Origin: Anaeromyxobacteraceae bacterium
GTDB taxonomy: Bacteria; Myxococcota; Myxococcia; Myxococcales; Anaeromyxobacteraceae
Assembly: GCA_047602405.1 (NCBI GenBank)
Contig: JASGHJ010000002.1
Span: 3,104,001-3,168,000 of the forward strand
Direction: 5' to 3'
Length of the DNA: 64,000 nt
Below the pieces are notes generated by a model. It made no database searches, was not told the origin of the DNA, and worked only from the letters and a program-made list of their open reading frames with translations. The position numbers were made by a program, and so were the translations under genes. This document shows positions 46,415 to 62,919 of this stretch, piece by piece (the first letter of the stretch is position 1; every line of letters starts with the position of its first letter).

Positions 46415-47206
46415 AGATCCTGTTCCTCGGCGACGTGTTCGCGAAGCCCGGCCGCAACGCGGTGACGCGCCTCGTGCCGAAGCTGATCACGACGGAGGGA
46501 CTCGACCTCGTGGTCGCGAACGCCGAGAACGTCGCGAACGGCTCGGGCGTGACCCCGGAGCTCGCCGAGGAGCTCCTCGCCGCGGAGGTGAACCTCCTCA
46601 CGAGCGGGAACCACATCTGGTCGAAGCGCGAGAATCATCCCGTACCTCGAGGCGCCGGGCTCGAAGCTGCTCCGCCCCGCGAACTACCCGAAGGGCAGCC
46701 CCGGCCGCGGCAGCGCCATCGTCGAGACCCCGGACGGCCGGAAGCTCGGCGTCGTGAACGTCGAGGGGCGGGTGTTCATGAAGAACCTCGACGACCCGTT
46801 CCGCCGCGCCGAGGAGGAGGTCCAGGCGCTCAAGGCCCAGGGCGCGGTCGCGATCCTCGTCGACGTGCACTGCGAGGCCTCGAGCGAGAAGAACGCGCTC
46901 GGGCACTTCTTCGACGGCCGGGTCTCGGCGGTCGTCGGCACGCACACGCACATCCAGACCGCCGACGAGCGCGTGCTCCCCGGCGGCACCGCCTACATCA
47001 CCGACGTCGGCATGTGCGGCCCGTGGGACTCGGTGATCGGCGTGAAGAAGGAGCTCGTGCTCGACCGGTTCCTCACGCAGCGCCCGGTGGGCTTCGAGCC
47101 CGCGCGCCGGGACGTGCACCTGCAGGGCGCGATCATCGAGATCGACGAGAAGACCGGGAAGGCCCGGTCGATCCGGCGGGTGCAGGAGCGGCTGCCGGAC
47201 GAGTAG
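46411..47206 (+). CDS. ymdB: YmdB-like metallophosphoesterase (frameshift at 46632)
   Basis: MKILFLGD, NAEN, TSGNH, RPANYP, HCEASSEK, GTHTH, TDVGM. Confidence 0.9.
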
Positions 47207-51055: not shown

Positions 51056-51196
51056 GGTGGGGTCTCCGGGTGGCTTTCCCCGTGTAACGCAGGACCGGAC
51101 CTGGCGATCTCTCACGGGAGGGGCCCGGGGAACCGCTTCCAGTCCGCCGTTGACCCAGTCCTTTCGCGATGCTACGTACACGCTCCCTGCAGCACC

Positions 51197-51273
<77 letters not shown>

Positions 51274-51277
51274 CATA

Positions 51278-51323
51278 AGCCCCCGTCACTACTAGGGATT
51301 CGTCCCGGGGTGACGGGGGCTTC
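51278..51323 (+). terminator. Hairpin after the tRNA
   Basis: 13-bp perfect stem AAGCCCCCGTCAC/GTGACGGGGGCTT. Confidence 0.6.
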
Positions 51324-51486
51324 TTCGTGCCCATGCGCGGTGGGGTGACGAACGGGGTGACGGCGTCGCCCGCGCGGCGCTGCTCGGCCTCTCAGTGCAC
51401 ACGGTCCTGACGGCCGCCGCGACCATCGGACAACCCGCGATCGACATGGCCCTGTAGTAGCCTGTACCGAACGTGAGGACCTCTCG

Positions 51487-52658
51487 ATGATCCACCATCT
51501 CTGGATGAAGAACTTCGGCCCGTACGAGAGCGCTGACGTGGAGCTCGGCGGGTTCAACGTGATCCTCGGCACGAACGGCTCAGGGAAGTCGCTGCTGTTC
51601 GGGGCGCTCAAGGCGATCGGCCGCATCGCGCGCTTCCCCCTTCGCTCTGCACGGCCCCACCTGGATGGCTACCCGACTCGTACCGGTCACGTGACCTTCG
51701 ACGAGATCGTCCACCGTTGTGACACCTCGCGCACGATGCGCCTCGGCGTGAAGTTCACCACGAAGGAGGTCAGCGGGGAATACGAGGTCGCCGTCGGTCA
51801 CTGGCACAACCCCGGCGGAGTCGTAGTCTCGGAACGCCTCCACGCCAAGAATGCACTGGGGGAACTGAAGATCAGCGCCCACCCCGACGGCAGCCTCGAT
51901 GCTGAGCCAGCATTGTCGATGCCCACCGGGAGGTTCCGTACCCCCCGCGTCGTCTCAATCCCTGGCCTCCTCTTTCGCTCCAGGGATCCCAGGGAGGCAG
52001 CGATCGCGGAGCAGGTGCAGAAGGCTCTCTCTGAGAGGACGACCATCTACAGGTTCGACCCGACGGCACTCAAGGCGCCCGCGGAAGTAGGCAAGGCGCT
52101 TTCACCCACGGGCTACAACTTCGCTACGTACCTCGATCAGAATCCGAAATCAAGCGGGAGGCAAGCAGGAGTTTGACGCGCTGTTGGATCGGTTCAGATC
52201 CGCGTGCCCGCACGTCGAGGACATCTTGCTGCCCTTTGAAGAAGGGCCGTCGGCTAGCACACCCCGGAAGCGACTCGCCTTGGTCATGCCCGGTGAATCG
52301 ACCCCGAATCCCCGGCGACCTGGAAAGCGACGGGACGATCCTCTTGCTCGCGTACGCGTCGCTCCTGCACGGCCACCGCGCTCAGGAGACTCTTTGCATC
52401 GAGGAGCCTGAGAACGGCATTCACCCGAAGGCTGTGGCTCATCAGGTCCGAATGCTGCGCCAGCTCTCACAGCCCTACAATGACCGACCTGGCGCCCAGG
52501 TACTCATCTGTACACACTCCAAGCGCTTCTTCGACGAGGTGAAGGACGACCCCTCGGTTCTGCGCCTCGTTCGGAGGGGTGGTGACGGGCGCTCGTCGGT
52601 CGAGACACCGAGCCCAACTCAGGTCGCTGCTCTGGCCGGTTGGGCTGGGTTGAGTTGA
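51487..52658 (+). CDS. ABC/AAA_21-type ATPase (two apparent frameshifts, at 52140 and 52306)
   Basis: KNFG, GTNGSGKS, ESDGT signature, IEEPENGIHP, ICTHS; removing one A at each GAATC gives a single ORF. Confidence 0.8.
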
Positions 52659-52664
52659 TGACAG

Positions 52665-52692
52665 TTGACAGCGGCCTCGGGAATCGCATAAT
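52665..52692 (+). promoter_or_regulatory. Sigma70 promoter of a putative sRNA
   Basis: TTGACA-N16-CATAAT. Confidence 0.65.
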
Positions 52693-52698
52693 TCAGCG

Positions 52699-52827
52699 CG
52701 TGGGCTGGCGTCCCCCTTAGTGACGCCGTACCGTAGTCCCCGTGGGTTGGCGTTCCCCTTAGTAACGCCTTGAGATTTCAGGTAGTTAAGGCCGCCTCCG
52801 TCCCATCGACGGGGGCGGCCTCTTTCT
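52699..52827 (+). ncRNA. Putative small RNA with two repeated hairpins
   Basis: 29-nt direct repeats at 52699-52727 and 52741-52769; identical loops; compensatory stem change; bounded by promoter and terminator. Confidence 0.6.
52789..52827 (+). terminator. Intrinsic terminator
   Basis: AGGCCGCCTCCGTC-loop-GACGGGGGCGGCCT followed by CTTTCT. Confidence 0.65.
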
Positions 52828-52884
52828 AGCCCCTGTGACACGCTCGTCTTCCACTGTCAGTCGCGCCTGCTAGGCTGCGGAGCC

Positions 52885-53703
52885 ATGTGGAAGAGGACCC
52901 GCCTTCTGATCTGGGGAAAGACTTACCCGGAGTTCTCGAAGCGGTACTACGAAACGGTCTGCACCGGCGCGATCCACGGCGAGACGGGTCGCCTGATCCG
53001 GATCTACCCAATCACGCTCCGGTACCTCGACGAGCACTTCCGCAGCTACCAGTGGATCGAGGCAGAGATCGAGCGCAACACGAGCGACTTCCGCCCGGAG
53101 AGCTACAAGATCAAGCAGAACACGATCACTCTGGGTGACTTCCTTGATCCTCAGAAGAAGGACGGCTGGAAACGGCGAGCAGAGTGGATTCTCCGGCCCG
53201 GCAACGTCTTCACGTCAATGGAGGCGCTGAGAGAGGCGGAGCGAGCCGACCGCACGTCACTAGGCGTGATCAAGCCCAAGAGCATCAAGGGCTTCTACGC
53301 CCGCACGCGCTCCCCTGAGGACAAGGAGGAGTGGGAGCAGAAGCGCCAGCTAGCCATCACCCAGAAGGACCTCTTCGTGGACACGGAGAGCAAGGTCGGC
53401 GAACTGGAGTTCCGCTGGGTGGACTACCGGGTTGAGTTTCGCTGCGATGACCCGGCGTGTTCAACGCTGCACGACTGCTCGATCCTGGATTGGGGAATCT
53501 ACGTCCTCGATCGGAACCAGGAGAGGAAGAAGGGCAGCTACAAACTCGCGGAGGCGGACGTCCTCGCCAAGCTCCAGGAGATCGCGGATCCGCAGAAGAA
53601 GGACATCCACTTCTTCCTCGGCAACACTAAGGACCACTCGAACAACTTCTCGGTGGTGGGTCTCTTCTACCCGCCGATCGAGAGGCAGGGGCAACTGCTC
53701 TAG
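52885..53703 (+). CDS. Conserved hypothetical protein (KTYP...ETVC...IRIYP family)
   Basis: Clean ORF with atypical codon usage; motifs GKTYP, ETVCTG, DFRPES, FFLGN, GLFYPP. Confidence 0.75.
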   Translation: MWKRTRLLIWGKTYPEFSKRYYETVCTGAIHGETGRLIRIYPITLRYLDEHFRSYQWIEAEIERNTSDFRPESYKIKQNTITLGDFLDPQKKDGWKRRAEWILRPGNVFTSMEALREAERADRTSLGVIKPKSIKGFYARTRSPEDKEEWEQKRQLAITQKDLFVDTESKVGELEFRWVDYRVEFRCDDPACSTLHDCSILDWGIYVLDRNQERKKGSYKLAEADVLAKLQEIADPQKKDIHFFLGNTKDHSNNFSVVGLFYPPIERQGQLL

Positions 53704-54128
53704 AGGTTGTGGATCCTCACGCCCGCGAGCCCGGCCGCGCTTTTGGCCAGGATCGACCGATGGCACTTCGCGGGGTTGGCCTCGGCGCACAGGAGCGCAG
53801 AGCGCTCACCCGCGGCAGCGCCGATCACCGCCTCTGTGATCTCGGGGTGCTCGTCGAGGTGGGCACTGTAGAGGGCGAGGCACCGCTCCAGGTGGTCACC
53901 AGCCTCGTGCCGGAACGGATTCCCGGCTGACCTGATGTGGCGGTACGCGATCCCAGCGCGTCCGAGGGCGGCGCTGAGCGGCGTCTTCGAGAAGCCCTTG
54001 CGGCGGGACAGCGGGAGCTCGCGCACGTCGATCACCTGGGTGACGCTTGCTTCCCGGAGCACACGGACGAAGCCCTGGAGCGTCCGCCCTTCGTAGCCGA
54101 TCGTGAAGAGGACGTCTTTCTGGCTCAC
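53700..54128 (-). CDS. DUF488 family protein
   Basis: FTIGYEGR, IDVRELPLSRRKGFSK, LLCAE...CHRS. Confidence 0.88.
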   Translation of the reverse strand: MSQKDVLFTIGYEGRTLQGFVRVLREASVTQVIDVRELPLSRRKGFSKTPLSAALGRAGIAYRHIRSAGNPFRHEAGDHLERCLALYSAHLDEHPEITEAVIGAAAGERSALLCAEANPAKCHRSILAKSAAGLAGVRIHNL

Positions 54129-54215
54129 GGCGAAGTGTATACGGCTTCACCGCGGCGGGCGCCAGAATCACAGCGCCTCGCACCGGACGATCGAGCCCGC
54201 TATGATCGTCCAGCC

Positions 54216-54494
54216 ATGATGAGCAAGACCTGGACCCTCGTGATCGCTCACACGGCCGAGGTCGGCGTCCGCGTGCTCCTGCTAGAAGCCGCCCTAGCAG
54301 CAGACTTCGGCCGGTGGCTCCGCGCGAGCGGGTGGCATGTCAGGTTCGAGGACACGACCGCGAGGAGCCCCTACGAGCTGCGAAGGACCAAGGACGAAGA
54401 AGACCTCGCCGGTGGACTGGCCTCCGCCTACTCGCAGTGGGCCCGAGTCGCGCGACCCAGCCTCGCGTTGGCGGACCTGGGACGACATGGCTGA
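54216..54494 (+). CDS. Hypothetical protein
   Basis: TATGAT box 9 nt upstream; overlaps the next ORF. Confidence 0.45.
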   Translation: MMSKTWTLVIAHTAEVGVRVLLLEAALAADFGRWLRASGWHVRFEDTTARSPYELRRTKDEEDLAGGLASAYSQWARVARPSLALADLGRHG

Positions 54495-55002
54495 ACCCAA
54501 GCTCCTCAGAGTGGACTCGCTTGACCCGAACGTCGAGCGTGCTCAAGCACGTCGGCGCCGGCAACGCGGTGTTTCCGCCTGGATCGCTCAGTGGGTGACG
54601 CCCGACGTAGCGGACCATCCGCTTGAACTCGCGAATCCATCCGTCCGAAGCGGCGTGGTCCTCGTGGCCTCTTCTCGGGCCGCCGAGGACAAGGTCTGCG
54701 AGAGCGCGAGAGCGATCTACCTAGCCCAGCTTGCCGAACCGTCGTTCATCCTAGAGGTCTATCGACTGGAGCACGCGCCTCGGCCCCGACGTGGGCCCTC
54801 ACCGGTCACTGCGATCTACGCGATGCTCGAAGCCAAGATCGCGGGCGAGCGACGTCGAGCCCCCTTCGTCGGGCGCTTCCGCTTCGGTCGCGATCCTTGC
54901 CTTTACGTGAGGCGGGTCAAGAACCTCCGCGAACGCCAGGACGGCTCGCTCGACTGGGACGAGATCCCAATCCCTCCGGTCCCGGGTGATCCCAGCGAGT
55001 AG
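54487..55002 (+). CDS. Hypothetical protein
   Basis: Coupled to the upstream ORF; converges on the element's minus-strand operon. Confidence 0.5.
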   Translation: MAEPKLLRVDSLDPNVERAQARRRRQRGVSAWIAQWVTPDVADHPLELANPSVRSGVVLVASSRAAEDKVCESARAIYLAQLAEPSFILEVYRLEHAPRPRRGPSPVTAIYAMLEAKIAGERRRAPFVGRFRFGRDPCLYVRRVKNLRERQDGSLDWDEIPIPPVPGDPSE

Positions 55003-55017
55003 GGCGACGGCGCCTCC

Positions 55018-55317
55018 CTACTCGCTGTGCAGCGCGAGCAGCTTGCTCACCGCCGCCGCGTGCCCGGCGTGGTTCGGGTCGTTGAGGGCGGGGTCCTTGC
55101 GAAGCTCCGCGAGGGCGGCCTTCCGGTCGGCCCGGGGCGGGGGCGGGGCCGCGGAGGCGGCGACGAGGTCCGACTCCCTGGCCGTGAGGTTCACAAGGCG
55201 CTCGGCCTCGGCCGCGCGTTCCTCGGGGAGCATCCCCCGGTCCTCCATCAGGCGCTTGCGGGAGGCCGCGATCTCGGCACGGGCGGAGCGGATGGCTTCG
55301 AGCTGCTCGGGGGTCAT
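55018..55317 (-). CDS. Small helical protein with phage-scaffold-like C-terminus
   Basis: SD GGAGGT; ATGA overlap; tail ALAELRKDPALNDPNHAGHAAAVSKLLAL. Confidence 0.6.
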   Translation of the reverse strand: MTPEQLEAIRSARAEIAASRKRLMEDRGMLPEERAAEAERLVNLTARESDLVAASAAPPPPRADRKAALAELRKDPALNDPNHAGHAAAVSKLLALHSE

Positions 55318-57434: not shown

Positions 57435-58745
57435 AGCGTGCTCCTCGGGTGGAGGCTGCTCCGCACGCTGAGGACGCGCGGCTCGGCCCACGTGCGGCCG
57501 GTGCTCGGGTCGCGGTAGACGGGCGACATGTCGTGATCGGCTAGGCACAGGGCCGCGTAGCGGATCGAGTCCGCCGCGTGCGAGTGGATGTCGTGGAGCG
57601 GGGGGCCGCGCCCGCCGTGGCGCTCGTCGGTATCGCGGCGGTACATCGCGAGGTGATCAATCCCCTCGGCCGTGTACCCCTCGTCGAACACGCAGTGCGG
57701 GAGGAGCGACGCCGCCGCAGCGATCCCCTCCTCGACGCCGCAGCGGGGCGCGACCTCGACGTGGAAGCCGAGGATCTCCAGGGCTTCGAGCCGGGAGCGG
57801 CCCGAGACGAGATCGCGTACCCGGATGTCGTGGGGCGCGTAGACCGTACGGACCCCAAGAATCGCGGAGGGTGCGGCCCACGTCGGCAAGGCCGGTGCCC
57901 ACCCACTCTCGGAAGAGGAGGATCCGGTGCTCCCCGGCGATGCTCTGCCCGACCCACGCGGAGGTGGCGTCTGCGATCCCGAGGTCGAGACTCGCCCACG
58001 CGTCGGCCTCGTCGATCCAGGGCACCGCGGGCAGGATGCGGCCGGCGGCGCGGAGGGCGGTGATGATCGCCCCGTAGATTGAGCCGGGCGGCGCCGCGGA
58101 GAAGTCGCACTCGAACTCCCGCGCGTACGCGTCGGCCGGCATCGTCGCGCGCGCTGCGGCCAGCTCCCCCGCGGGCAGCACGCCCGTCTCGGAGGCTCGG
58201 AAGAGGAAGTGGCTCCAATCCGGGAGGCCGCGGGTGTCCTGGATGAGCCGGTACAATGGATCGCGTCCCTTGGGCGTGCCGATGAAGATCGCCCAGCCCA
58301 GCCGATCGGCGAGGGCGGGGCGGACCACGCTCGCGAACACGCTGTCCTCCATGAGGGCGTACTCGTCGAGCACCACCCCGTCGAGCCCGACGCCGCGGAG
58401 GCTGTCCGCGCCGTCGAGTGCGCCCGCGAGGAAGACGGCCGAGCCGTTCGGGAACACGACGCGAAGCTCCTGCTCGAACACCTGGACGCCGGGGACCGGC
58501 CGGACGTGGTCCTTGAGGCGCTGCCACGCGACGACCTTGGCCTGCGTACGGGTCGGGCCGACGTAGGCGCAGAGAGCGCCCGCCTTCCGCAGGGCGGTGT
58601 CGGCCAGCTCCGCGATCGCGGCCTCCGTCTTGCCGCCGCGACGGTGGACGACCGCGACCGTGAACCGGCGCCGCTCGCGGTGGACGCGCTCCTGCCAGGG
58701 CCGCGGGACGTAGCTGAGGCGGACCTCACGAGTGAACGGTTTCAT
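57431..58745 (-). CDS. terL: Terminase large subunit (frameshift at 57859)
   Basis: PRPWQ, HRRGGKT (Walker A), LRG, VVLDEY (Walker B), GTPKG, DLGIAD, APHD, SHAADSIRY. Confidence 0.88.
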
Positions 58746-59491
58746 CCGTAGAGGACCTCTTCGAGGGTGAGACTTCCTTCTTCTGAAAGTGCTCGGCCTG
58801 CGATCTCGGCTGCTTGGGCTTCGCGGGGTGACCGCGGGGAATCGACCGGGGTGACATTGACCGCGGCGAGGGCGGGAAGCGGATCACGCGACGGGACCCC
58901 CGTGTTCACCACGAGCACCTGCACGGCGCCGGGGCCGATCACCACCTGCGTGTCCTGGTAGAGGTTCGCGAGCTTGTTGACGAGGTCCTCCGCTCGCAGC
59001 GCGGCGTTGCGATCGCCCTCCTCTTCGGCTTCGCGCCCGAGTCGTTGGATGCGAGCGATCTGGCCCTCACGCGTCACCTGGGCAGCGCGCCGCGCACGCT
59101 CGCGGAGGAGCGCGACAAGCTCGACCACCTCGGGCCGTCTGAGGACCATCCACGGCGCCCCGCCACGAGGGGACAGCCCGGCTGCGCGCGCGGCTGCCGG
59201 CAGCGAGGCTCCGCCCGCGTGCTCCTCCGCGAGCCGCGTCGCCTTGGCCGTGCACCTCGCCCGTGCGTCCGCGATGCGCTCCTCAAGCGCGTCCGCGTCG
59301 AGCTGCTCGACCGGGAGGGTCGTCCCCTCACCTTCCCTCAGCCCACTGCCGGCCGGTGGTGGGGATGGTGGGGTTTCGGGCCCACTCGCCAACCGCTCAC
59401 CTACCTCGACACTCTCATTTCTCTCCGCCACCGTCGTCTCCCTCTCCGCCCGAAATGTTGAAGGTGAATTTCCTTCCGCGTTGGCAACCAC
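58742..59491 (-). CDS. terS: Terminase small subunit-like protein
   Basis: AARAAGLS..VLRRPEV..AALRAEDLVNKLANLY pattern; ATGA-coupled to terL. Confidence 0.7.
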   Translation of the reverse strand: MVANAEGNSPSTFRAERETTVAERNESVEVGERLASGPETPPSPPPAGSGLREGEGTTLPVEQLDADALEERIADARARCTAKATRLAEEHAGGASLPAAARAAGLSPRGGAPWMVLRRPEVVELVALLRERARRAAQVTREGQIARIQRLGREAEEEGDRNAALRAEDLVNKLANLYQDTQVVIGPGAVQVLVVNTGVPSRDPLPALAAVNVTPVDSPRSPREAQAAEIAGRALSEEGSLTLEEVLYG

Positions 59492-59493
59492 CC

Positions 59494-62491
59494 CTAAGAC
59501 TCCACCATCCCCACCACCGGACTCTCCACGTGGTAGAGGGTCCGGCCGCGGACGATTCGGGCGCGGAGCACGAGGTCCAGGTTCGCGAGGGGCTGGTCCA
59601 CGAGAGTACCGAGGAAGTGACCCAACGCGGGCGCGCTGTGCACCCGCTTCCGGTCGGTCGCCTCAATCGCGTCGCGCAGCGCCGCCTCGTCGGTGTCCGA
59701 GGGTGGAAGGTCGATCCCTCCGTTCACTCGCCGGACCACTTCCGTGCATGAGAACTCCCGCGCGGCCGGAACGGCACCGCCCGGATCCACCACCCCGAAC
59801 ACCGCGGCGAGCGCGACGAGAGCCGAGACCTTCGCCTTCTGTTCCGGGCTCGACTCCGCGACCTCGGCCCGCTTATCGAAGATCCCGCTCTCCCCGGCGA
59901 AGGCGAGCGGCCACGTCACGAGTCGGTCCACGTCGCTGCCGAGGCCGAGGCTCGGCCCTTCCTCGCGTGCCCCAGCCGCGAACCACGCCCGCTGGATCGT
60001 GAGGAGCGCGTGGAGGACCTCGACGCGGATGGTCTGCGCATACGCAATCGGATCAGCGTTCCTGAACCTCCGCTGCTCGGGGCACGCCTCCTTCGCGAGG
60101 AGGTCGATCTTCACGAACCGCCGGATCAGGTCCGATGCGACCTCGACCTTGTTCCCCGTGAAGACGAACAGCGAGCACGTGGGCACGTCCACGTCCTGCG
60201 TCAGCCCGAGGATTCGCTGCGTGTAGACCGGCGACGTGATGATGGGCGACAGGACCGGGTTGTCGATCGTCGCGCCATCCGGGACGTTGTCGAAGCAGAT
60301 CATCGTCGGGCTGCGCATCAGCGTCGCGAGGATCTGCTTGCGAGCCTCGCCCTGATCCTCGGGCAACGTCTGCACCGCCATGTCTCGGCCAGTGAGGACG
60401 GTGTGCATCATCCTCGCGAGCGTCGTCTTCCCCGTGCCCTGGACCGTGGCGTTGATCAGGATCGCTGGGCCCTGGCTCGTCGCCTTCCTGGAGACCCCGG
60501 TGAGGAGCGCCGCGATCGCAGCGGCCCCGTCCACCCCGGCGTCCTTGAAGAAGCACCTCCGCGAAGAGCAGCTCGCGGATGCGATGCGCCGCTGCGACCG
60601 CCTCGTCCCTCGTCGGCGCCGGCTTCACCTGCGGGAACCGCCAGCCGTCGAATGACAGGAAGAGGCCCGTCGCGTCGTCGAGGCCCTCGCCTGAGAGGAG
60701 CCGACCGCTCGGAGTGTGAACAGGGTGGAGAACGAGCCCGGTGACGCGCGGCGCGCGCTTGTCCGGGAGGTCCAGCATGAAGGTCGGGAGCTTGTCGAAC
60801 GGAACCTCCATCGGGACCACAGCCCCCTTCTCGCCGCGCCGGTAGAGGCACACCGACTTCTCGATCGCGAGGAGCATCGAGACCTTCGTGTGCGGCACGA
60901 AGAGGACCTGCTTGGGAGGCGGGAGCCGGTCGTCCGGGGACCGGTGGGCGTTGTCCGGGTGCTCGGAGTTCGGGATCTCGTCCTTGGCGACCCGGACGTA
61001 GGCGCGGTCGATCCGGAGGAGTCCGTCCTCGATCAGCGCCGCCTCGACCTGGGGCAGCATCGAGTTGTAGGACATCGGGTTCCACAGGACCGGCGCGCGG
61101 TCCTTCGCGACGAGCGTGAGCCGGTCCTTCGACCTCGCCGCCTTGTAGGACGCCGAGCGCTCCGCAAAGAACACCTTCCAGGCGTTCGTGATCGCCCGCT
61201 TCTTCCCGATGTTCAGCTTCTCGACCACGAAGGTGAGCGCGTCCTCGAGCCCGACGGGATCGAGGTGCGCGTCATAGACGACCTTCGCCCACGCCTCAGT
61301 TGCGAGCGGCTCGTCGCGTTCGTTCGCGTCGAGTGCCAGTTCGACGAGGGCCCGCCTAACCTCCTCCAGCGACACCCCGGAGCCCGTCCGCGAGTAGATG
61401 CGCTGGAAGTAGCGCTCCTCGCCGGCCTTCGCCTTCTCCGCGCCGGCGCCGTGCGGGTACGAGATCAGGAGGTGTCGCGTCTCGCGGTAGCTGAGCCCGC
61501 GCGCCTTGAGCATCGAGCCCAGCGACATGTCGAGGCCGGACCTGGAATCGTCGCCGAGCCCCGTGCCTCGCCCCTGCCACCGCGCCTCCAGGAGCACGTC
61601 CGCCGCCCTGAGAGCGTCGAACCGCTCCGCCAAGGCGAGGCGCTCCCCCTCGTCGAGCGGGGCCGTTTCTTCCGTGAAGCTCTCTTCGCGGGGCGCACGG
61701 GGCGACTCCTCGGGAACAGGCTCGGGGAGGCCGTCCGAGAGCTGCGCGATCGTGTACCGGGCCCCCGCGTCGGCGTGCAGCACCGCCGCGAGACGCGCGA
61801 CCTTCGGGTATCCCTTCGCCATCTTCTTCTTGGTCGGGTGGTTCACCGTCCCGGCGAGGCGGAGTATGCGATCGACGTTGTGGGTCCCTGGGTCCCCGCC
61901 CCACCGCGCAACGAGGCGCCGGTTCAGGTGCTCGACGTCCGCGTGCTCCACAGGCTCCGCGAGCCGCCACAGGGCGGAGATGCCGTTCCCGGAACTCCAC
62001 ACGACCGTGGGTGGCGCCGGGCTCGCGGCCATCTCCGCGGCCACGATCTCGTGAAGGTAGGAGCGAGCTCCCGAGTAGCCGCCCTTCTGCGCCATGAAGG
62101 CGTCGGGGTCGATCTCGACGTGGGCGAACCGCGCCGCGCCGATCTCGGCCTTGGATGGCTTCTTGAAGACGCGCTCCGCGGGCGCGTTCACCGAGAAGTA
62201 GAGCTGCTCGCCCTTTCGGTTGTACGCGCAGGCGATCTCCGCGCCCTTCGCCCGCGCCGCGGAGTCCGACGCATCGATGGTGAAGCCCTTCATCCCGTCC
62301 GGCCCGAGGTGGCAGACGACCACGAGCCCCCCGAGCTGCTCCAGAAAGGCCGCGACGGCAGACTGGTCCGGCGCGACGGGTGGCGGCGTGATTCGCGTCT
62401 TGCTAGGCTCCTGGGAGTTGGTCGCTCTCGATGCTGTCCTGACGCGCTCGCCCTGCCCGGCGGGCGCGTCTGTTTCTTCGAGGCTCGTCAT
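59494..62491 (-). CDS. Primase (RepB-like AEP) fused to a P-loop helicase-like domain (frameshift near 60556)
   Basis: YFSVN, HVEID, SSGNG, RILRLAGTVN; C-terminal QGTGKT, CFDNV, FTGN, DLIRR. Confidence 0.75.
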
Positions 62492-62919
62492 GGGCGGGCC
62501 CTCCTGCGAACGCGGATGCAGCCCGGCGCGATGTTCCGGTCGGTCCGTCTCGCCTCGCGCGGCAGCCCGCCGACGTCGAGCATGTTCACCTCGCGCCGCA
62601 GGCGGTCTCCCCGCAGCCCATGGAAGGCATGTAGCCACTCGCGCACGAGAGCCCGCATTGCCGTGAGGTCCTCGCGGTGCATCAGGACGTCACTCGGGTG
62701 CGTCCACGCCCCCACGGCGCCGTCGATCCACCCGACCAACCGTGACACTGGCGAGGTGTCACGCCGGAGCGAGGCGAAGTTCTCCAGGGGTGGGAGCGTC
62801 AAGGTCAGCCCGAACTGCGCGTCCTCTTCCGCCCACGCTGCTTGCGCGGGAGAGCGCCGTGCGAGGCGCCAACGGCCGAGCAGCGGGCGCGGGTTGATGA
62901 TGCGTTGGCGAGTCGTCAT
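62488..62919 (-). CDS. Hypothetical protein
   Basis: SD-like AGGGGG; ATGA-coupled to the primase. Confidence 0.55.
   Translation of the reverse strand: MTTRQRIINPRPLLGRWRLARRSPAQAAWAEEDAQFGLTLTLPPLENFASLRRDTSPVSRLVGWIDGAVGAWTHPSDVLMHREDLTAMRALVREWLHAFHGLRGDRLRREVNMLDVGGLPREARRTDRNIAPGCIRVRRRARP

Follow-up and report, generated by a model that had tools for sequence, protein, structure and literature searches.

The window, that is, the whole stretch of 64,000 nucleotides analysed here from the genome of an Anaeromyxobacteraceae bacterium (host G+C, 74%), contains the left part of a mobile island with the following features:

51197..51271, plus strand: tRNA-Pro(GGG) gene, the integration site and left end of a ~13.8-kb satellite-like island
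51487..52658, plus strand: lone ABC-type (AAA_21, PtuA/AriA/HEC-01A-like) ATPase gene, ~389 aa in relatives
52665..52692, plus strand: sigma-70-type promoter-like site, TTGACA-16-CATAAT, first base 7 nt past the ATPase stop
52699..52727, plus strand: RNA unit 1, with UGGG at 52701-52704, stem 52707-52712/52722-52727 and loop CCCCUUAGU at 52713-52721
52741..52769, plus strand: RNA unit 2, a tandem duplicate (period 42), with stem 52749-52754/52764-52769 and a loop identical to that of unit 1
52789..52827, plus strand: intrinsic-terminator-like hairpin, 14-bp stem 52789-52821 with a short U tail, CUUUCU
52885..53703, plus strand: PADLOC candidate PDC-M19B-like protein, 272 aa, a neighbour outside the module
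53700..54128, minus strand: DUF488 (PDC-M19A-like) gene, convergent with the M19B gene, a neighbour outside the module

The 3' part of the tRNA-Pro gene is duplicated at G000:C2:3168980-3169041, just past the window edge, and we call the island satellite-like because it carries integrase, excisionase-like, RepB-primase and terminase-like genes. The left cargo reads, in order, ABC ATPase (51487-52658), small RNA, PDC-M19B-like gene and convergent DUF488 gene. A terminator-like inverted repeat (51278-51322) follows the tRNA-Pro gene and parts it from the ATPase gene. The PDC-M19B-like and DUF488 genes (52885-54128) converge with a 4-nt overlap; a Pfam search with the M19B protein gave no match, and by eye, the upstream DNA in 4 of 10 M19B relatives resembles the end of a co-directional DUF488-type gene. 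Elsewhere in the island (57657-62638), one encoded protein resembles a terminase large subunit, and a RepB-primase frame of 861 aa seemingly continues in another frame near 60560; just past the primase region (59353-59520), there is a 41-nt imperfect inverted repeat (76%), possibly a replication origin; a search of the island primase against 5 genomes recovered no match.

The small RNA gene had been noticed in a sequence-only reading of this DNA, and its principal elements are confirmed. The promoter boxes, TTGACA at 52665-52670 and CATAAT at 52687-52692, are separated by a 16-nt spacer and match the consensus at 11 of 12 positions; no second site of this quality occurs within 51100-55200 (4.1 kb), where the mean for shuffled sequences is 0.4. 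The two 29-nt repeats, with a period of 42, are identical at 26 of 29 positions (90%). When the 226-nt intergenic stretch was shuffled 2000 times, this level was never reached, and among 2000 random genome pieces, it was reached by 8. The stems attributed to these repeats, GGCGUC/GACGCC and GGCGUU/AACGCC, with identical 9-nt loops, are present in the sequence and also in the centroid fold, and the terminator placed after them is the 14-bp hairpin at 52789-52821 with its CUUUCU tail. The plus strand of the element holds nothing beyond 6-codon GUG mini-frames, and the two minus-strand ORFs that run into it, 52467-52841 (124 aa) and 52504-52689 (61 aa), are both antisense to the ATPase. The predicted RNA is ~130 nt long in the window, where one 42-nt unit is duplicated, and ~80 nt long in the two relatives described below; the predicted transcription start lies 2-5 nt 5' of UGGG at all three loci.

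The folding z-score of the whole window element is -3.08, contributed by the terminator; the two small hairpins alone are as stable as shuffled sequences (z -0.11), and folding of 52741-52827 leaves the second hairpin unformed. The case for the hairpins is, therefore, one of conservation rather than of folding energy. An Rfam scan, which had been proposed as a check, recovered a tRNA as the sole match at the gathering score and nothing above chance at E values up to 10; no Rfam family matches the RNA motif. In the host genome, the window locus is the only copy of the motif.

The ATPase in the window is read in three frames, with one-base breaks near 52141 and 52307. These breaks, as well as one at 46632 in a host core gene, all lie at GA(A)TC; in a comparison of the host core genes with those of two relatives, one was broken (46632, intact in both relatives), with an extra A at the same GA(A)TC motif, and judged by that gene, the frame breaks of the ATPase may well be assembly errors. 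Genome-wide, extra bases at GAATC were counted in 81 of 400 cases versus 45 of 400 for some control motifs, other controls being similar, and an asymmetry between deletions and insertions at GAATC was absent (62 vs 65 of 350), so that a bias of this kind did not show across the genome. The protein belongs to a family of ~17 to 20 members with 47-72% identity, the next relatives being at ~30%, which forms one sharply bounded clade (support 0.998); the relatives are labelled Polyangia, Myxococcota. The ABC motifs are intact in the family alignment (Walker A GxNGxGKS, the LESDG signature, IEEPENG and THS), and the closest folds to the ATPase model (pLDDT 90) are PtuA of Septu and of the retrons Eco7/Ec78/Ec83, Rad50 and OLD. 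The best PADLOC matches are to HEC-01A (E 6e-18), and the ESM Atlas yielded generic AAA_21/AAA_15 clusters only. The protein has no nuclease or other effector domain, and none of 13 matches of 201-2000 aa is a fused, longer form.

Several basic residues (R53, R67, R221, K261, R263, R345 and R368) are fixed in the clade and rare outside it, and the net charge per 100 aa is +0.43 in the clade vs -1.67 in distant relatives (14 vs 38 proteins). These features are compatible with nucleic-acid binding, a comparison that is confounded by kinship, and fixed basic residues are expected anyway of any clade at 50% identity. The family is rare: the ATPase was found in none of 400 other genomes of the phylum, in none of 401 and 201 genomes of another phylum (overlapping draws) and in none of the smaller sets (0 of 4, and 0 of 5 in each of three sets), and searches of plasmid and phage records gave no match.

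The linkage of the RNA to this ATPase is also seen at two additional loci. One of them (L007) was found by a protein search with the C-terminal piece of the ATPase and lies in phage G415 (L007, L202-L206), a complete 85,269-bp record with terminal repeats and matches to DNA polymerase, helicase and primase, in which no tRNA was found. Its matched ATPase half is 54% identical, and 7 bases past the ATPase stop, there is TTGACA, followed by UGGG-UA-GCGCU-CCCCUUAGA-AGCGC and a terminator; of the ATPase, this phage holds only the C-terminal 162 residues (229-390) together with the RNA. The other locus (L015), recovered by a scan with the family alignment, encodes an ATPase with 66% identity, the stop of which is followed by TTGAC boxes, UGGG-UU-CGCGUC-CCUCUUAGC-GACGCG and a terminator. 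At both loci, the TTGAC box, UGGG, stem, CC(C/U)CUUAG loop and terminator all fit into at most 130-165 nt past the stop, and the -10 boxes are weak, matching at only 3 of 6 positions each; the L015 terminator is a GGCCGCC...GGCGGCC hairpin similar to that in the window, and the L007 hairpin differs. In L015 (354-403), TTGAC boxes occur at +1 and +45 past the ATPase stop, 44 nt apart, possibly a promoter duplication that matches the 42-nt hairpin duplication of the window.

Altogether, the motif directly follows the ATPase stop in all three subfamily loci with readable downstream DNA, a sample of 3 loci and 4 motif copies, two of them paralogous, on which the motif itself was defined. The fourth close locus (L014) stops short of the ATPase stop and so was left unscored, and the ~17 to 20 family proteins, which have no readable context, were left out of the count. 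The two collection scans with the family alignment covered 12 of 64 and 15 of 64 parts, respectively, with at least 2 close family members among the 80 loci listed of 575 in one scan and none among the 80 listed of 591 in the second. The post hoc chance of the motif descriptor is ~1e-7 per 200 nt. The three loci reside in mobile elements that are unrelated to one another, namely, the satellite-like island in the window, the complete 85-kb phage, and a contig with a ParB/KorB gene, and the genes downstream of the RNA are different in each. This distribution weakens the suggestion that the RNA is a satellite regulator of its helper phage, as the module also exists outside satellites. The description as twin hairpins holds for the window and turns out to reflect a local duplication, given that both relatives have a single hairpin.

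In L014, the 205 nucleotides upstream of the ATPase (1-205) are a candidate insertion site or point to a chimeric contig; they have no Pfam match and resemble what we take, by eye, to be a cut lysyl-tRNA synthetase gene. The DNA immediately ahead of the ATPase is alike in the window (51445-51480) and in L014 (240-270), with the pattern CCTGT..TGTACC..AAC..AGGA, which is palindromic in L014 and is possibly a shared promoter or operator.

Searches beyond the three loci outline how narrowly the motif is distributed. A DNA search of 61 related genomes recovered the locus itself and 2 weak matches confined to the terminator, and the twin-loop pattern was found in 1 of 37 genomes of the genus, the host's own. 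The relaxed motif occurs in 13 of 368 genomes of the class, with complementary stems only in the two matches of the host genome; the 12 other loci were rejected, with scores of at most 15.7 bits vs 35.6-43.7. An RNA model searched over 151 genomes of the phylum gave a single match (E 0.007) that was dismissed as antisense inside a coding region. Among viral contigs, the exact window pattern had 0 matches, and a relaxed pattern had 4 matching stretches, 3 of which were dismissed, neither stem nor ATPase being present. Across the viral collection, the L007 contig is the only match of the motif pattern and also of the ATPase signature pattern; the viral motif pattern was built from these loci, and hence, the single match attests to specificity and is not an independent find.

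Distant homologs of the ATPase provide the contrast. The motif was found at none of 169 such loci, and by a rule that is lenient in GC-rich DNA (an ORF of at least 100 aa at the stop), a coupled ORF is present at 146 of the 161 scorable distant ATPases vs 0 of 3 subfamily loci. By the same rule, the coupled ORF is missing in 15 of 161, and no motif was seen in the downstream DNA of 7 of these 15. At the nearest outgroup locus (L016), the partner gene is DUF4276-like. Given that the distant ATPases are mostly coupled to an ORF and the subfamily loci are uncoupled, the RNA gene occupies the place usually taken by the partner gene.

The motif common to the four units consists of UGGG, a 5-6 bp stem and a CC(C/U)CUUAGN loop, a loop form that all 4 units share; the invariant parts are UGGG, the stem's GCG/CGC and the loop's CC-CUUAG. 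Across the units, two-sided changes affect 3 of 6 stem pairs, and pairing holds in 34 of 35 cells, a count drawn from few sequences, with the structure derived from the same sequences, and hence not a probability. The search for homologues and covariation that had been suggested thus came out in favour of a self-contained structured RNA among the cargo of a satellite-like island: both relatives keep the TTGAC box, the covarying stem, the loop and the terminator. In all units, the 5' GGG can also pair with the CC(C/U) of the loop (3 bp, 11 of 11 cells), the sole change being one-sided, from G-C to G-U, so that each unit possibly forms a 27-nt H-type pseudoknot. The core of E. coli ToxI is described as a 25-nt H-type pseudoknot (PMC8860590).

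The same data bear on the readings that tie the repeats to DNA or to the downstream gene, either as operators or integrase arm sites, the prospect raised at the outset as a potential refutation, or as a type III antitoxin for the PDC-M19B gene. The repeats sit after the promoter, as operators can, and the order in the window, promoter, repeats, terminator and gene, is that of type III systems (PMC5086642). However, the compensatory stem changes fit a folded strand and not a duplex site, and the motif occurs in only one place in the genome, 1.4 kb from the attachment site. M19B relatives were found in 10 of 300 other genomes; the motif is near none of these 10 loci, and M19B is missing after the motif in L007 and L015. 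These co-occurrence data largely refute the operator, arm-site and M19B-antitoxin readings, which we consider very improbable; the link of the RNA to M19B/DUF488 was rejected. The original conjecture that the RNA serves a neighbouring gene as an antitoxin or as a decoy of its protein survives as the best-fitting of the alternatives, with the upstream ATPase, present at 3 of 3 readable loci, as the neighbour rather than the downstream gene.

Next to be weighed is whether the RNA acts in trans as an anti-Shine-Dalgarno sRNA, resembling the cuckoo RNAs, with the C-rich loop blocking translation of host or phage mRNAs and the ATPase as a linked regulator or passenger. The loop is, indeed, reverse-complementary to CUAAG(G/A)GG; ribosome-binding sites rich in G are present in this group, and in one M19B relative (L216), TAAGGGGG precedes the start; moreover, modular hairpins that share one loop and differ in their stems make up the cuckoo layout as described (PMC4615179). 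Possible targets, however, are few. The anti-SD sequence of the host is CCUCCUUU, from which the loop differs; among 1798 host leaders, CTAAG is present in 7 and AAGGGG in 11; the island contains no complement of the 9-nt loop besides the opposite strand of the RNA gene itself; and phage G415 has no perfect 8-nt complement to its own loop other than the gene itself. Neither the ATPase start nor the island nor most host leaders offer the loop a good complement, and the strict tie to one ATPase family is left unexplained by this reading, which accordingly seems unlikely; the initial cuckoo lead finds no support here.

A position directly past the stop codon, where the element supplies the sole terminator, would also be expected if it formed the 3' end of the ATPase mRNA and acted on that mRNA in cis, by stabilizing it or by pairing with its ribosome-binding site, and in L014, AGGAGGGG lies 26-34 nt upstream of the start, although this pairing is weak (equalled by 7% of shuffles). 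Against such a role, the best duplex at the window ATPase start (-5.4 kcal/mol) is equalled by 45% of shuffles, by which pairing with the ATPase's own ribosome-binding site was rejected; a TTGAC box follows closely on the stop at each of the three loci, which speaks for a transcript distinct from the mRNA; and phage G415 retains the element in the absence of the 5' half of the ATPase. We regard the cis role as rather improbable.

Another alternative is that the RNA acts on the translation machinery, as a leaderless mini-frame or a decoy of the tRNA-Lys anticodon loop, and is the toxic or protective part of the module. Each of the three loci has (A/G)UG at position +1 or +2 of the predicted transcript (52700 and 52742 in the window, 434 in L015, 4387 and 4391 in L007), and in 3 of 4 units, a 6-codon frame closes at the UAG of the loop. 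Any start site would, however, be expected to have a purine at +1; in L007, which is shorter by one base, the frame is broken; and the peptides differ. The inner 7-mer of the loop matches the anticodon loop of the host tRNA-Lys(CUU) at 6 of 7 (L015) or 5 of 7 bases, but the stem is unlike a tRNA arm, the loop has 9 nt, and in 3 of 4 units, a C occupies the position of U33 in tRNA. PARIS, an ABC-ATPase system, is described as cutting tRNA-Lys (PMC11464382). On balance, action on translation carries little probability.

Finally, the ATPase and the RNA could be two parts of a larger system, with the effector or a reverse transcriptase encoded elsewhere or lost. The closest folds are the PtuA ATPases of ncRNA-holding retron complexes, and defence ABC ATPases are reported usually to have an effector partner (bioRxiv 10.1101/2024.01.29.577857). 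Yet no partner lies upstream in the window, where the tRNA and attachment site are found, or in L014, and none lies downstream in the three loci; the RNA has no msr-msd layout; and intact ATPases that have diverged to 47-72% identity point to a maintained two-part unit. A missing third component is, in our estimate, improbable as well.

The module shares features with several known systems. The closest parallels are the type III ToxIN/CptIN/TenpIN systems, described as having a small RNA with a strong promoter and repeated units before an intrinsic terminator, on mobile elements (PMC5086642, PMC8860590), with a compact core of 25-27 nt, here possibly likewise an H-type pseudoknot, and an RNA that phages can capture. 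The linked protein here, however, is an AAA_21/ABC ATPase and not an endoribonuclease (ToxN/CptN/TenpN/AbiF), and its gene comes before the RNA gene, which is served by a promoter of its own; although the window shows the type III order, the gene after the RNA is not its regular companion (0 of 10 loci). Furthermore, one unit suffices at 2 of 3 loci, there is no Rfam match to ToxI, and toxin cleavage sites were not seen. RCd22, an RNA of ~130 nt with two hairpin motifs of ~30-33 nt and a terminator, is reported to neutralise AbiF by direct binding, with stem structure outweighing stem sequence (bioRxiv 10.1101/2025.04.15.648962); unlike the RNA described here, RCd22 is located upstream of abiF and co-transcribed with it, AbiF being Cas13-related, and the abiF motif RF03085 has no match in the window element.

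On the protein side, type I-A retrons and Septu PtuAB are described as containing an SMC-like ABC ATPase that is inactive in a nucleic-acid complex (PMC12475279, PMC12804668), and PtuA is the closest solved fold here, but this ATPase has no adjoining reverse transcriptase, HNH (PtuB) nuclease or msDNA layout; the scanned island ORFs include no reverse transcriptase or HNH gene, nor does one follow the stop at any of the three loci. HEC-01, PARIS and AbiL belong to the same ATPase superfamily, which here is cargo of a satellite-like element (bioRxiv 10.1101/2024.01.29.577857, PMC11464382), but at all three of our loci, the small RNA gene replaces the coupled nuclease gene (TOPRIM, RloB, DUF4276). 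With the cuckoo sRNAs, the module shares adjoining hairpins with identical C-rich loops and variable stems; these RNAs are, however, described with 2 to 4 adjacent hairpins, compared with two in the window and one each in L007 and L015, and with the loop CCUCCUCCC instead of CC(C/U)CUUAGN (PMC4615179). Also unlike the cuckoo case, the ATPase relatives are not alphaproteobacterial by label, the RNA is tied to one ATPase gene, and there is no Rfam match. The module thus departs in defining features from cuckoo RNAs, type III systems, retron-Septu and the two-gene ATPase-nuclease defences, and may work in the manner of a type III antitoxin.

We tentatively propose, as a reading with a sizeable though not preponderant chance of being correct, that the RNA binds the upstream ATPase and restrains it in the way of a type III antitoxin. 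A loop that stays constant while the stem varies, a strong promoter apart from that of the protein, units in repeat and an unchanging protein neighbour all characterise antitoxin RNAs that act by binding a protein, and in type I-A retrons, a complex with nucleic acid keeps the ABC ATPase inactive. Made from a strong promoter of its own, the RNA would be in excess over the ATPase, and the compact motif, perhaps an H-type pseudoknot, would be recognised by the protein rather than act by base pairing with mRNA. Phage infection, by halting host transcription or by degrading the RNA, would free the ATPase, which could then mount a growth-arresting defence, either by depleting nucleotides or by bringing in an effector that belongs to the host or is distant; the tandem duplication in the window might increase the amount of RNA or supply the two subunits of a dimeric ATPase. 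The release step is the weak point of the ATPase-restraint reading; in PARIS and in Septu-type retrons, the toxic step is reported to need the partner nuclease, which does the damage (PMC11464382, PMC12475279, PMC12804668). Phage capture of ToxI repeats has been described (PMC5086642), and the RNA of phage G415, with half of an ATPase next to it, fits a stolen antitoxin; it could also be a hitch-hiking passenger. In its fullest form, the proposal is that of a novel immune module with two parts, a lone SMC-like ABC ATPase and, as its guard, a ~80-nt pseudoknot RNA that replaces the nuclease partner. This RNA would be the first RNA antitoxin of an ATPase, functioning with no reverse transcriptase and stolen by a phage as counter-defence; as a whole, this is possible but rather doubtful.

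In the cited literature, as far as the accounts in these sources go, protein-binding RNA antitoxins all control a ribonuclease, and defence ABC ATPases work with a nuclease partner, those of retrons also with a reverse transcriptase; a literature search across titles and abstract openings, with few subscription papers among them, turned up no system that pairs an ATPase with an RNA partner. The module is small, consisting of one gene and ~80 nt, and its family is rare, so that its reach is conceptual rather than ecological. Gene-based defence finders would miss such a module, seeing just an orphan ATPase. If the proposed arrangement is true, a lone ATPase with a small RNA would widen both the class of RNA antitoxins and that of defence ATPases.
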